Source: Fibrobacteria bacterium
Lineage (GTDB): Bacteria > Fibrobacterota > Fibrobacteria > UBA11236
DNA: 64,000 nucleotides
NCBI GenBank assembly: GCA_043745805.1
Contig: JAYTSD010000038.1
Location: 34,807-98,806, forward strand
Direction of reading: 5' to 3'
The notes beneath the pieces are model-generated. The model saw only the letters and a program-made list of their open reading frames with translations, had not been told where the DNA came from and made no database searches. Every line of letters begins with the position of its first letter. The stretch's first letter is position 1. Of this stretch, positions 58,333-62,884 are shown piece by piece. The translations under genes and the position numbers were made by a program.

Positions 58333-59046
58333 CTAGTCTTTCCAGACTAAAATGCTACCGCAGCTTTCGCAAGTTAAAAGATTATTGCGTTTGCTGATTT
58401 CAATAATACGTTGTGGAGTTTGTGTACGATTACAAACTTCGCAGGCTTTTTGATCGCGATTAATGGCGGATACCACATTTGGATTTCCGCGACGCTGTAC
58501 CACTCTATCGTATACCGAAAGAATTTTTTTGCTGAGATTTTTACGAGGTTCTTCCCCGTGGGCTTTTTGTTCATTAATGCGATCTTGAATGCCGCTTAAC
58601 TCATCGCTCAAGGTATTTAGCAATGGCTCATTGTCTTCGGAAATTTTTGCAAAAGACGCTTGCGCATTTTCTTGATCTTTTAAAATATTTTCATGCACTT
58701 GTTGAAAGTGAATGGTATTGGCTTGAGCCATATCGATATTTTTTTTGTGCGTCGCAATTTCAGAATGAATGGCGTCGTATTCACGATTAGTACTAATATT
58801 ATCAAGTTTTTTATTACTATCGTTTAAAGCGATTTGCTCGCGTAAGGCAATTTCTTGATTTTCTTCAATCTTCGCTTTGGTTTCAGCCAAGTCCGAATTG
58901 ATTTTTTCAAGCTGGGTTTTTTCGCGTATAACTTCACCTTTTAAGTTCTGAATGCGAACAGGTAAATCTTTTTTAGTAAGCTCCAGCTCATGGGCTTTTT
59001 TGTCTACCGCTGAGAGCTCCAGGAGAAGCTTTAATTCTTCTTGCAT
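58333..59046 (-). CDS. coiled-coil C4 zinc-ribbon protein (DUF164, CT398/HP0958-like)
   Basis: Long coiled coil plus CEVC...CESCGSIL. Confidence 0.88.
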   Translation of the reverse strand: MQEELKLLLELSAVDKKAHELELTKKDLPVRIQNLKGEVIREKTQLEKINSDLAETKAKIEENQEIALREQIALNDSNKKLDNISTNREYDAIHSEIATHKKNIDMAQANTIHFQQVHENILKDQENAQASFAKISEDNEPLLNTLSDELSGIQDRINEQKAHGEEPRKNLSKKILSVYDRVVQRRGNPNVVSAINRDQKACEVCNRTQTPQRIIEISKRNNLLTCESCGSILVWKD

Positions 59047-59761: not shown

Positions 59762-60445
59762 TTATTTTTTCTTAGCAGCAGGCTTTGCGGCGGCAGGTGC
59801 TTTAGCAGCGGCAGCGGGTGCTTTGGCGGCAGCTTTTGCAGCAGCAGGTTTAGCCGCAGCAGCAGGAGTAGCAGCACCAGGTGCAGCAACTTCTTCTTCT
59901 TTACGTCCGGAAGTTACTCCAAATAAAGCTGTTTTGGGAGGCGTTACAAAAGAGCCCTTTTCGAATTGTAAATCGCGAACATAAAAAATTGTTCCCGAAG
60001 CTAATTCCGAAACATCCAAATCAAATGAATCGGGAATATCTTGGATTTTTGTTTTTAAACGAACAAATTTTTTCATTTGAGAAAAAACACCGCCTTGGGT
60101 TTTTACGCCAACTGGCATGCCATGAGTGGTTACAGGAACGGCTACCGTAACGAATCTTTCTTCATTAACACGTAAAAAATCAATATGCGTAATGGTTCTT
60201 TTAATGGCTTCGCGTTCAATGGCTTTAATGAGCACAGTCTGTTTTTTGCCATCCACATCAAGCTCAATCACATGATTTAATTTGGGCAAATGAGGACGTA
60301 AATCGGTAAAGTTAACTTCTAAAAGTTCTGGTTCTTTTTCGAGACCATAAATTACGCCCGGAACTTTTCCGGCTTTGCGCATTTGTAGTAAAACTGATTT
60401 TGTTGATTTTTCTCGTTTGCGGCCGAGTAATACTGTCGTTTCCAT
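59762..60445 (-). CDS. rplY: 50S ribosomal protein L25/CTC with Ala/Lys/Pro C-terminal tail
   Basis: GKVPGVIYG, HIDF and GVKTQGG motifs; upstream of pth. Confidence 0.93.
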   Translation of the reverse strand: METTVLLGRKREKSTKSVLLQMRKAGKVPGVIYGLEKEPELLEVNFTDLRPHLPKLNHVIELDVDGKKQTVLIKAIEREAIKRTITHIDFLRVNEERFVTVAVPVTTHGMPVGVKTQGGVFSQMKKFVRLKTKIQDIPDSFDLDVSELASGTIFYVRDLQFEKGSFVTPPKTALFGVTSGRKEEEVAAPGAATPAAAAKPAAAKAAAKAPAAAAKAPAAAKPAAKKK

Positions 60446-60566
60446 AATTTTCCTTTTTCAGTAAACGCGGAAGTCTGGCGCGCCTTTCTGAGATTATTTA
60501 TTTGCTTCTTACGAAGCCATGACTTCTGTACCATGAAGAGGCCAAAAGGCTTTCCAAGTGGACGCG

Positions 60567-60595
60567 AATGTAGTAAAACCCCTTGTAGGAGTCAT
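60567..60595 (-). promoter_or_regulatory. sigma70-like promoter of rplY-pth
   Basis: Minus strand ATGACT-17-TACATT, giving a 5' UTR of about 115 nt. Confidence 0.5.
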
Positions 60596-60696
60596 TAGTA
60601 TTTAGGAAAACCTCGACTTTTAAAACCCTAGAGTTTCGTCATGGATTCCTATCGGTGGCAAATAATGTTAAGCTTGCAGGGAAGATGGAGGATTTT

Positions 60697-60900
60697 ATGA
60701 ATGGAACATCCTTAATTATTGGCTTAATAACGGGTTTAATAGGTATGGGTTATTTCAGCTATGGAAAAAAGCAAGGAAAGAGCATACCCATGTTCGCCGG
60801 TGGGGCATTATGTGTTGTGCCCTATTTTTTTGAAAACAACTTAATCTTGGCGGCTGTTTGTTTGGTGCTGATTGCGGCGCCTTTTATATTCCGGTATTAA
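60697..60900 (+). CDS. small 3-TM membrane protein
   Basis: GGAGG RBS; IGMGYFSYGKKQ...LCVVPYF conserved-looking motif. Confidence 0.8.
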   Translation: MNGTSLIIGLITGLIGMGYFSYGKKQGKSIPMFAGGALCVVPYFFENNLILAAVCLVLIAAPFIFRY

Positions 60901-60939
60901 CGCGTCATTTAAAAGTCAATATTGAGCAAATGACCTAGT

Positions 60940-60973
60940 AAAAACGGCAACCCATTGAAGAGTTGCCGTTTTT
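60940..60973. terminator. bidirectional Rho-independent terminator
   Basis: AAAAACGGCAAC-N10-GTTGCCGTTTTT between the convergent small gene and tRNA. Confidence 0.85.
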
Positions 60974-60977
60974 GTTT

Positions 60978-61052
<75 letters not shown>

Positions 61053-61067
61053 TCAAATTTTGAAGCA

Positions 61068-61096
61068 ATAGTAGCTAGAAAGCCAAGGCATTTCAA
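61068..61096 (-). promoter_or_regulatory. sigma70 promoter of tRNA-Gln
   Basis: Minus strand TTGAAA-17-TACTAT. Confidence 0.7.
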
Positions 61097-61115
61097 TAAT
61101 TAGTAGCGAAACTAT

Positions 61116-61198
61116 AAAAAAAAATTGCAGACGTTTGGGACGTCTGCAATCTTGAGGCTAAGGGAGGACAAAACCCTTAGCCACTTGCGGGTAACGAA
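61116..61198 (-). ncRNA. candidate small RNA (two stem-loops, anti-SD loop, intrinsic terminator)
   Basis: GGCTAAGGG-TTTTGTCCT-CCCTTAGCC hairpin, then ATTGCAGACGT-CCCAA-ACGTCTGCAAT plus T8; no upstream minus-strand CDS to terminate. Confidence 0.65.
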
Positions 61199-61209
61199 GC
61201 GATAGCAAA

Positions 61210-61224
61210 GCGAAAGATATGCCA
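61210..61224 (-). promoter_or_regulatory. sigma54 (-24/-12) promoter of the candidate sRNA
   Basis: Minus strand TGGCAT-ATCTT-TCGC with exact GG-N10-GC spacing. Confidence 0.55.
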
Positions 61225-61396
61225 TAAATTAATTAATGAAATTACGGAAAATGCAAAGCTTTATTCTGGAAATAGGGAATGTTGGTCAGTTTTTAACCAG
61301 CAGATTCAGAGCAGTTGATGTTTATTTGCTCAATTTAAATGAACCATTTGGGGTATGAGTTTGTGCTTATGTGGAGCAATAGCTAGTTTAGCACCC

Positions 61397-62884
61397 ATGC
61401 TTAAATGGATTTTTCTGCTTTTGGTTTTATGGACTTCGGTTCTAGCTGCCGAGATGAAATCACCGCTCGCAAGTAATGTGGATAAAAAGATTATTGTCAT
61501 TCCCGTTGAAGGGGAAGTGGACTATGGACTTTATGCTTTTTTAAAACGTAGTGTGGCCGAAGCTTTGCCATTAAAACCCGATTATATTGTTTTTAAAGTG
61601 AATACTTTTGGTGGCGAATTACATGCGGCTTTTGAAATTGTGGATTTGCTCATGGGTATTTCTCAGTGCAGCACTTATGTCTTCGTCGAACAAAAAGCTA
61701 TTTCTGCGGGCGCTTTAATTTCATTATCCGCAAATCGCATTGCTATGGGGCAAGGTACTACCATAGGTGACTGTGCGCCTATCACACAAGGTCAAGACGG
61801 CATCGTGATGTTAGGCGAAAAAATTCAATCTCCCTTGCGTGCTAAATTCAGAAACCTAGCCGAAAAAAATGGTTACCCTAGTTTACTTGCCCAAAGCATG
61901 GTTTCCACGGATTTGGGCGTGGTGCAGGCTTTTAAAGCAGGTCAGGATTCTAGCAAACATTATTTTACGGTAAAGCAATGGGATAAACTGAGCGCTGCGG
62001 ATCAAGCGCCATTCATATCCCATAAAATTTTAGTAGCGGATGGGGAATTGTTAACCATGACTGATTTGGAAGCGCAAGCTTTGGGTTTTTCGCAAGGATC
62101 ATTTGCCAATTTCGAAGCCTTTATAAAAGCAAAACATTGGCAAGCGACACAGGAATTTAAATCTACTTGGTCCGAAGATTTAGTCCGTTGGCTTGGAAAA
62201 CTATCTCCCATTTTAATGCTATTAGGATTTGGCGCATTGTATCTGGAATTCAAAACCCCAGGCGCGAGTTTTTTTGGATGGATAGGTTTTATCGCTTTAG
62301 GCATAGTTTTCTTTAGTCATTATGCCATTGGTTTAGCGCATTATACTGAATTACTTTTACTCATAGGCGGCTTCATTTTGTTCTTATTAGAGATTTATTT
62401 CTTTCCGGGAACCCTAATATTAGGGGCTTTGGGAGTGATTTGTATTATGGCGGGCTTGGTGCTTTCCATGCAGGCCTATACCTTCCCCGATCCAAAAATG
62501 CCTTGGGAATTGCGCGATATGTTAAAACATGTTTCATTTATTTTGGCTTTGGCGGTTTCCGCATTGGCGATTCCTTTTTTAGCGATGAGATTTTTATCTC
62601 CGATTTTGCCTAAAGGTTATCAAGTCGTTTCGCTTACTACACTGAAAGATGCGAAGGTTATTACTGAAGAAAGTAGAGACTTACATTTAGGTCAAAGTGG
62701 ATTTACTAAAACCGGATTGCGGCCCATGGGAAAAGCGGTATTTGCCGATAAAACATATGAAGTGGTTGCGCGTAGCCATTTTATCGAAGCGGAGACTGTG
62801 GTAGAAATCGTGGAAGTTACGGGTAACAAAATCGTAGTAAAGCGTAGGGATGATTTGGTAATGCCAAAGGATATCGTTGTATGA
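61397..62884 (+). CDS. nfeD: NfeD family membrane-bound ClpP-like serine protease
   Basis: NTFGG, AISAGALI and EK motifs; TM bundle with EFKTPG; C-terminal LRPMGKA OB fold; start uncertain (61355 or 61397). Confidence 0.88.
   Translation: MLKWIFLLLVLWTSVLAAEMKSPLASNVDKKIIVIPVEGEVDYGLYAFLKRSVAEALPLKPDYIVFKVNTFGGELHAAFEIVDLLMGISQCSTYVFVEQKAISAGALISLSANRIAMGQGTTIGDCAPITQGQDGIVMLGEKIQSPLRAKFRNLAEKNGYPSLLAQSMVSTDLGVVQAFKAGQDSSKHYFTVKQWDKLSAADQAPFISHKILVADGELLTMTDLEAQALGFSQGSFANFEAFIKAKHWQATQEFKSTWSEDLVRWLGKLSPILMLLGFGALYLEFKTPGASFFGWIGFIALGIVFFSHYAIGLAHYTELLLLIGGFILFLLEIYFFPGTLILGALGVICIMAGLVLSMQAYTFPDPKMPWELRDMLKHVSFILALAVSALAIPFLAMRFLSPILPKGYQVVSLTTLKDAKVITEESRDLHLGQSGFTKTGLRPMGKAVFADKTYEVVARSHFIEAETVVEIVEVTGNKIVVKRRDDLVMPKDIVV

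Follow-up and report, generated by a model that had tools for sequence, protein, structure and literature searches.

The spacer between a tRNA-Gln gene and nfeD in the genome of an uncultured Fibrobacteria bacterium carries on its minus strand a sigma-54-type promoter box, a perfect hairpin and an intrinsic terminator, in this order. Does such a unit produce an RNA, and what could the RNA do? The spacer belongs to a 64,000-nt stretch of DNA (the window, whose numbering is used throughout), and a first-pass annotation had proposed that it encodes a sigma-54-dependent small RNA (sRNA) which represses translation in trans through an anti-Shine-Dalgarno (anti-SD) seed. The best explanation of the data presented here is a single-copy, lineage-specific, sigma-54-dependent gene for a candidate non-coding sRNA of ~82 nt on the minus strand. 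This assignment is tentative, and we give it somewhat less than an even chance.

Organization of the minus-strand unit

The minus-strand sequence was re-read, and the positions and the description of box, hairpin and terminator in the first-pass annotation were found to be correct. The features of the region are the following.

61116..61224, minus strand: the unit between tRNA-Gln and nfeD, with three ordered elements (box, hairpin, terminator)
61225..61354, minus strand: upstream region expected to hold an enhancer-binding site; weak inverted repeats only
61210..61224, minus strand: sigma-54-type -24/-12 box TGGCATatcttTCGC, from sequence; matrix score 18.1 bits
61192..61213, minus strand: tandem 11-nt direct repeat TCGCTTTGCTA / TCGCTTCGTTA, 82% identity between the copies
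61183..61198, minus strand: predicted 5' single-stranded tail UUCGUUACCCGCAAGU, 16 nt, from sigma-54 spacing and fold
61156..61182, minus strand: hairpin 1, a 9-bp perfect stem with the 9-nt loop UUUUGUCCU; CCUCCC spans the end of the loop and the 3' arm
61116..61153, minus strand: intrinsic terminator, a 14-bp stem with 11 perfect Watson-Crick pairs as its core, loop CCCAA and 9 T
61225-61112, minus strand: 37-codon ORF, opening at an ATG without a Shine-Dalgarno sequence, with its stop past the U-run
61500-61330, minus strand: 56-codon ORF, antisense to the start of nfeD
61355-62884, plus strand: nfeD (membrane-protease gene), divergent from the unit
61096-61068, minus strand: promoter-like site of tRNA-Gln, TTGAAA-17-TACTAT, from a sigma-70 scan
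61052-60978, minus strand: tRNA-Gln, co-oriented with the unit and 64 nt downstream of it

The box has the form GG-N10-GC on the minus strand and consists of TGGCAT (61224-61219), five bases, and TCGC (61213-61210), with GG at 61223-61222 and GC at 61211-61210. From the position of the -12 element and the standard sigma-54 spacing, +1 would fall near 61198. The tandem 11-nt repeat covers the stretch from the -12 element to just past this putative +1, and an AT-rich palindrome, CATTAATTAATTTATG (61223-61238, minus strand), abuts the -24 element; either may be bound by a regulator, or both may have arisen by chance.

Downstream of the predicted 5' end, the 16-nt tail was mostly unpaired in the fold prediction, with an opening energy of 0.78 kcal/mol. 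Hairpin 1 is made of GGCTAAGGG (61182-61174), the loop TTTTGTCCT (61173-61165) and CCCTTAGCC (61164-61156), its 9 bp being 100% complementary, and the loop and 3' arm do read UUUUGUCCUCCC as first annotated. The terminator, annotated as a perfect 11-bp stem plus U8, has 11 perfect pairs in its core (ATTGCAGACGT / ACGTCTGCAAT) and 14 with its extension (61153-61140 with 61134-61121); the T-run at 61124-61116 has 9 T, of which 8 fall outside the perfect core. Folded alone, hairpin 1 was predicted at -14.9 kcal/mol and the terminator at -17.7 kcal/mol. The 89 nt from 61200 to 61112 folded at -36.4 kcal/mol, compared with a mean of -14.7 kcal/mol (sd 2.85) for 200 shuffled sequences (z = -7.6), none of which was as stable as the native one. 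Since no T-run follows the terminator stem when the plus strand is read, the terminator is one-way and belongs to the minus strand.

No minus-strand coding sequence feeds this terminator, which upholds the earlier statement. The nfeD gene is divergent, and there are only two minus-strand frames upstream of the terminator, the 37-codon and the 56-codon ORF, neither of which is credible. That tRNA-Gln is provided with a promoter of its own, as had also been stated, agrees with the promoter-like site at 61096-61068.

The whole 2-kb stretch, including the nfeD/tRNA-Gln junction, was reproduced with zero differences in the Logan contigs of two sequencing runs, X1 and X2. These runs may be the source of the assembly, so that reproducibility is shown rather than independence. 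Contigs from two further runs, X3 and X4, were fragmentary and identical where they covered the region, and the four DNA runs, all from one study, therefore offered no micro-diversity for covariation.

The box among the candidate sigma-54 promoters of the genome

The proposal presupposed a sigma-54 factor, and one is encoded. The genome (3.95 Mb in 50 contigs, 99% complete, 40% G+C) contains rpoN as a 535-aa frame matching Sigma54_DBD at 207.8 bits, together with 15 strong genes for enhancer-binding proteins (bEBPs; Sigma54_activat, above 190 bits each). The pattern TGGCA[CT]-N5-T[TC]GC occurs 42 times genome-wide, and 18 of these occurrences were found in the ~9% of intergenic DNA, defined as DNA outside a crude ORF map of this genome, where ~4 were expected.

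A weight matrix was trained on 18 boxes of this genome, leaving the studied box out. The studied box scored 18.1 bits, the leave-one-out median of the training boxes being ~17.7 bits, and it ranked 24th among the 444 GG-N10-GC sites above 8 bits. Of the sites reaching 18 bits, it was the sole intergenic one not used in training; the 8 other non-training sites all lay within ORFs, from which, by our arithmetic, ~0.8 intergenic sites of this quality would be expected by chance genome-wide. The -12 element TCGC departs from the consensus TTGC. TTCGCT occurs in three boxes of the training set of 18, at 42-78 nt from the downstream genes, which encode Hsp20, a MerR-type regulator and a PEP-CTERM protein. 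As scored with this matrix, TGGCAT-N5-TCGC falls inside the sigma-54 promoter repertoire of this genome.

The set of boxes itself was also inspected. Several sigma-54 boxes lie within ~1.5 kb of bEBP genes. A Pfam scan of 12 genes downstream of boxes matched 10 and left two without a match; the FlgB rod protein, the Rod-binding/SLT protein, Hsp20 and the sensor kinase found behind boxes are typical sigma-54 targets. The products of the candidate regulon, as read from box-gene pairs on contigs C1, C6, C8, C17, C20, C27, C28, C31, C43 and C50 of the genome (G000; L106-L117), are Hsp20, a MerR-type regulator, a PEP-CTERM/DUF4114 protein, a flagellar (FlgB) rod protein, a Rod-binding/SLT protein, an ECF sigma factor, SpoVG, an amidohydrolase, a PAS/HAMP sensor kinase and a Tsx-like channel.

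Terminators were surveyed in the same way. Of the 232 terminator-like sites in intergenic DNA, 183 lie behind a gene of the same orientation, and 28 are orphans whose stem has 8 bp or more. A sigma-54 box within 250 nt upstream was present at one of these 28 only, the terminator of the studied unit. By post hoc arithmetic, we estimate that such a box and an orphan terminator would come together by chance ~0.002-0.01 times per genome. The survey also brought up a two-way terminator-like hairpin, AAGGGAGGC...GCCTCCCTT, at G000:C4:63214-63235, with T-runs on both sides and, by the crude gene map, orphan on both strands; it may mark another small unannotated gene.

The region expected to bind an activator was less informative. 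Only weak inverted repeats were seen upstream of the box (61225..61354). With the sequences upstream of other sigma-54 boxes, this region shared 67 11-mers, no excess over 10 shuffles (21-77), and no bEBP gene was found on the contig carrying the unit.

Search for paralogs, homologs and similar layouts

The first-pass annotation had suggested searching the genome for paralogs of the same promoter-hairpin-terminator layout, and Rfam for a family. The genome yielded no such paralog in the orphan-terminator survey and one copy with a covariance model, and Rfam yielded no family either. At E values up to 10 over 60700-61600, Rfam returned only tRNA-Gln and, on the terminator alone, rli32; this best non-tRNA hit reached 17.2 bits against a gathering score of 100. 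At gathering thresholds, nothing besides tRNA was found in the whole window.

DNA searches with the 302-nt spacer against 40 relatives gave only matches of 15-44 nt, the best at E 0.02, and two of these that were inspected proved to be unrelated GC-rich sequence. The covariance model, R1, which was built from the single sequence, found no homolog in 31 genomes of the family or 38 of the order. It gave three marginal hits (E 0.02-0.24), including the terminator after an acyl-carrier-protein gene, an apparently unrelated sequence and a unit in genome G027 that is described below. Two metagenome matches to the promoter-plus-seed pattern were rejected, being GC-rich, without the layout and about as many as expected by chance. 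Apparent genomic repeats of ATTCCCTATTTCC were rejected as well, their contexts being unrelated. A close relative of the neighbouring NfeD protein was not found in the metagenome contigs. Among the genomes and metagenome contigs searched, the unit as recognized by sequence occurs in this one uncultured sediment bacterium only; its genus is represented by this genome alone, and the test of conservation is thus low in power.

A pattern scan of 39 genomes detected the promoter-to-terminator layout in two hits only, the studied unit and the unit in G027, which represents another family of the same order. Most other hits of the scan had, by eye, a Shine-Dalgarno sequence and a start codon nearby downstream. 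In the G027 unit (G027:C31:21059-21172(-) = L088:1506-1619) the box is of the consensus type, TGGCAT-N5-TTGCA, and TGGCATctggaTTGCA is followed ~90 nt on by an 8-bp GC-rich terminator with T8. There is no ORF between box and terminator, and the unit is divergent from a solute-binding-protein gene. It was the best of the marginal covariance-model hits, its sequence is unrelated to that of the studied unit, and no homolog of it was found in 29 other genomes. The scan shows that a putative promoter-to-terminator layout of this kind recurs in the order.

Gene order at the locus and the possibility of a relic

Gene order at the locus was compared with that in relatives. The gene for tRNA-Gln(ttg) stands just before that for L25 in 27 of the 29 L25 loci of relatives, as it does in this genome, where L25/Ctc (rplY) and then pth lie downstream of tRNA-Gln on the same strand. 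In relatives with at least 300 nt of upstream sequence, ispE directly precedes tRNA-Gln in 21 out of 26 cases; the usual succession in relatives is ispE, tRNA-Gln, L25, pth. In this genome, an intact ispE lies on contig C14 (G000:C14:92150-92450), where a different tRNA follows. None of the 29 nfeD loci of relatives has a tRNA beside nfeD, and in many of them a conserved divergent ORF occupies the place of the tRNA. From these arrangements, we conclude that the join of nfeD to tRNA-Gln, within the rearranged stretch 60446-61354, is specific to this lineage and that the 300-bp spacer consists of new sequence. One relative, G021, is flagged as unpublished; leaving it out shifts each count by one and no conclusion.

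Given that the unit sits exactly at the rearrangement junction, orphan debris is plausible, and the main rival to an sRNA gene is a non-functional relic of the rearrangement, that is, a hairpin and an orphan terminator that remained next to tRNA-Gln. It could represent the leader and terminator of a lost sigma-54 gene, in which case the box would be fortuitous or would serve no product. The junction unique to this genome among those searched, the present position of ispE on another contig before a different tRNA, and the failure to find a homolog of the stretch in the relatives, order genomes and metagenome contigs searched are all consistent with a relic, and the 27 other orphan terminators in the genome indicate that orphans are not rare. 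However, a box of such quality at the right distance and on the right strand is improbable by chance, as estimated above, and both stems are perfect, with zero sign of decay. The 37-codon frame bears, by eye, a faint likeness to the C-terminus of IspE; when 21 IspE C-termini were used as tblastn queries (E up to 10), the intact ispE on C14 was the only hit and the locus gave none, so this candidate remnant was dropped. The relatives, moreover, show by eye no obvious terminator between ispE and tRNA-Gln. Altogether a relic seems to us somewhat less likely than an sRNA gene, while still deserving to be taken seriously.

Some observations on the neighbouring genes may be recorded here. The gap between tRNA-Gln and L25 is ~530 nt in this genome, compared with roughly 140-220 nt in the two relatives measured. 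It contains, at 60655-60900 on the plus strand, a small membrane-protein ORF of 81 codons, or more likely of 67 codons with the ATG at 60697 as its start, in front of which stands GGAGGA; the ORF had no match in Pfam or NCBIfam. It converges on a hairpin at ~60946-60975 that can be read as a terminator working in both directions, for the ORF and the tRNA alike. The C-terminus of L25/Ctc is a low-complexity tail rich in Ala, Lys and Pro (59762-59890, minus strand), and an L25 query against the genome contigs gave only 3 distant loci at 24-27% identity and no information on synteny, the low-complexity peptide having swamped the scan. At 58333-59046 on the minus strand there is a gene for a 237-aa coiled-coil protein with a C-terminal C4 zinc ribbon (Zn_ribbon_9), which matched the CdsZ model weakly (42 bits against a cut-off of 275). 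H. pylori HP0958 and Chlamydia CT398, which are reported to bind RpoN, we take to be relatives of the family of this protein. In three GC-rich relatives (G011, G017 and G013; L057, L058 and L059), long hairpins of G/C-rich tandem units, for example GTCGGGA repeats, replace ispE upstream of tRNA-Gln.

Alternative promoter, leader and plus-strand readings

An sRNA could also be made here from a promoter other than the sigma-54 box, either a weak sigma-70-type promoter or one that is not recognised as such. The off-consensus -12 element TCGC and the upstream region that yields no assignable activator site would fit this, and a TTGCAT-17-ATTAAT sequence with ~7/12 matches was noticed by eye just upstream of the box. 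A sigma-70 scan of the minus strand over 61100-61354, however, returned no site with at least 9/12 matches, the only such site nearby being that of the tRNA, and the sigma-54 box scores as a typical member of the genome's own set. We consider another promoter rather improbable.

The unit might instead be a sigma-54-driven leader with its terminator, acting as an attenuator or insulator before a tRNA-Gln-rplY(L25/Ctc)-pth operon. It is co-oriented with tRNA-Gln at a distance of 64 nt, and L25/Ctc and Pth are encoded downstream on the same strand. Nevertheless, a separate promoter-like site precedes the tRNA, the terminator, at -17.7 kcal/mol and with U9, is very stable, no alternative antiterminator pairing was found by eye, and the relatives have no such element before tRNA-Gln. 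The probability of a leader is accordingly low, and we would not build on it.

It is also very unlikely that the functional strand is the plus strand, with the hairpin presenting AGGACAAAA (AGGA in the loop) as a CsrA-type site in a long 5' UTR of nfeD. CsrA is encoded in the genome (82.2 bits), and the plus-strand loop does contain AGGA. On the other hand, the plus strand has no promoter-like site in 60500-61900, the hairpin is ~175-200 nt from the nfeD start, the loop offers a single GGA only, and the T-run of the terminator makes sense on the minus strand only. RNAs of the CsrB/RsmZ type would show several GGA in their loops; the plus strand has the single AGGA loop, and the minus-strand RNA, lacking any GGA, would not be a CsrA sponge. 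A gene for a 37-residue peptide at 61225-61112 (minus strand) can practically be dismissed: its frame is open from an ATG, but this ATG lies inside the -24 box and has no Shine-Dalgarno sequence, and the frame stops only after the U-run, which would leave the terminated transcript without a stop codon.

Anti-Shine-Dalgarno motif and predicted targets

For the candidate sigma-54-dependent sRNA, the motif in hairpin 1 was then considered as a pairing site. The claim of an anti-SD seed was weakened. In the fold prediction UGUCCU was exposed (probability of being unpaired 1.0), while the following CCC was locked in the stem (probability of being unpaired 0.0); in UGUCCUCCC, bases one to six are free and the final three are paired. 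Opening of CCUCC was calculated to cost 7.1 kcal/mol and that of UCCUCCC ~10 kcal/mol. With half of the seed buried at such a cost, the accessible element would be the loop UUUUGUCCU and not the full anti-SD sequence.

The targets that had been suggested fared worse. GGAGGA precedes 79 and GGAGG 197 of the 3291 predicted starts in the genome. The former frequency corresponds to ~1.3 sites per 64 kb, so that the two GGAGGA-type matches pointed out in the window, as supposed targets, equal the number expected by chance. The best duplex of the loop segment over all start regions was -30.1 kcal/mol, within the range of -24.0 to -30.9 kcal/mol obtained with 12 shuffled seeds, and genome-wide duplexes of the 5' tail showed no excess over shuffles. 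Target prediction from genome-wide duplexes thus did not single out the native seed, as shuffled seeds did equally well; an accessible seed with better-than-chance targets, the mark of a trans-acting base-pairing sRNA, was not found by these calculations. The longest complementarities to ribosome-binding sites, GGAGGACAAA, occur before two ORFs, of 962 aa and 178 aa, on contigs C4 and C29, and serve as leads only.

Searches of the 99%-complete genome for Hfq and for ProQ found neither, so the Hfq-dependent mechanism of the Qrr type would not be applicable here.

Proposed mode of action

If the unit is an sRNA gene, one of the enhancer-binding proteins of the genome, once activated, would allow sigma-54 RNA polymerase to transcribe from the box at 61224-61210. 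The candidate RNA would extend from ~61198 to ~61117 on the minus strand, where the strong intrinsic terminator would end it, and would be composed of the 16-nt free 5' tail, the stable hairpin with its loop UUUUGUCCU, and the terminator hairpin with the U-tail. Such an RNA would most likely act in trans and without Hfq. Its loop could nucleate on AGGA-containing sites, possibly with spreading of the duplex into the CCC of the stem, and/or the 5' tail could pair; the partners would presumably be the translation-initiation regions of mRNAs.

Repression through the anti-SD motif is speculative. In its fullest form, a recently born, lineage-specific, sigma-54-induced RNA would, upon a stress or developmental signal, mimic the anti-SD sequence of 16S rRNA and damp mRNAs with a strong GGAGG(A) ribosome-binding site, in the absence of Hfq and ProQ. 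By the crude start map, mRNAs with a GGAGG(A)-type site belong to 79-197 of ~3300 genes. We regard this form of the proposal as quite improbable at present.

Comparison with known systems

The Qrr1-5 sRNAs of Vibrio are encoded by free-standing genes of ~100 nt that depend on LuxO and sigma-54. These genes combine a sigma-54 promoter, an activator, stem-loops and an intrinsic terminator; they occur as several paralogs, and the RNAs need Hfq. The studied unit, in contrast, is single-copy, lies in a genome where Hfq was not found, and has no sequence or structure match in Rfam. RsaE/RoxS of the Firmicutes have motifs rich in C/U within hairpin loops or next to them, and these motifs are complementary to G-rich ribosome-binding sites. 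RsaE/RoxS are widely conserved and expose several C-rich motifs, whereas the RNA considered here has one motif, which is predicted to be partly paired. Pxr of Myxococcus is a small RNA gene transcribed from a sigma-54 promoter under an NtrC-family activator. Campylobacter jejuni, to our knowledge, has no Hfq.

GlmY/GlmZ of Yersinia and other enterobacteria and NrsZ of Pseudomonas are likewise sRNA genes with sigma-54 promoters and NtrC-family activators (PMC3045617, PMC4253122). GlmY/GlmZ, NrsZ and Pxr, each conserved within its clade, are RNAs that are larger or undergo processing, and their activators and upstream sites are defined; the studied unit showed none of these features in the present analysis. 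Another counterpart is CJnc230, also called FlmE, of C. jejuni. It is an sRNA of ~90-100 nt with RpoN-dependent expression and two stem-loops, whose short anti-SD motif CCUU pairs at ribosome-binding sites and represses translation; the seed is single-stranded between the stem-loops, the RNA is conserved across Campylobacter, and its action is experimentally proven (PMC11187230). On that description, its sigma-54 link, two stem-loops and anti-SD motif have predicted counterparts in the studied unit, which differs in being a free-standing candidate, unconserved among the genomes searched, with half of CCUCC buried in a stem. The unit resembles the sigma-54 sRNAs in its predicted layout and is a member of none of them by sequence or structure.

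Sigma-54 sRNAs with anti-SD motifs have already been described (Qrr, GlmY, NrsZ, CJnc230), so the present unit adds to an established theme and starts no new one. A real RNA would enlarge by one sRNA the sigma-54 regulon of this uncultured sediment bacterium, in which neither of the usual RNA chaperones was found, and the locus might then be an example of an sRNA gene born at the junction of a rearrangement. Should the anti-SD mimic prove true as well, then, together with the non-homologous G027 unit, sigma-54 riboregulators would appear to arise repeatedly in this uncultured order.
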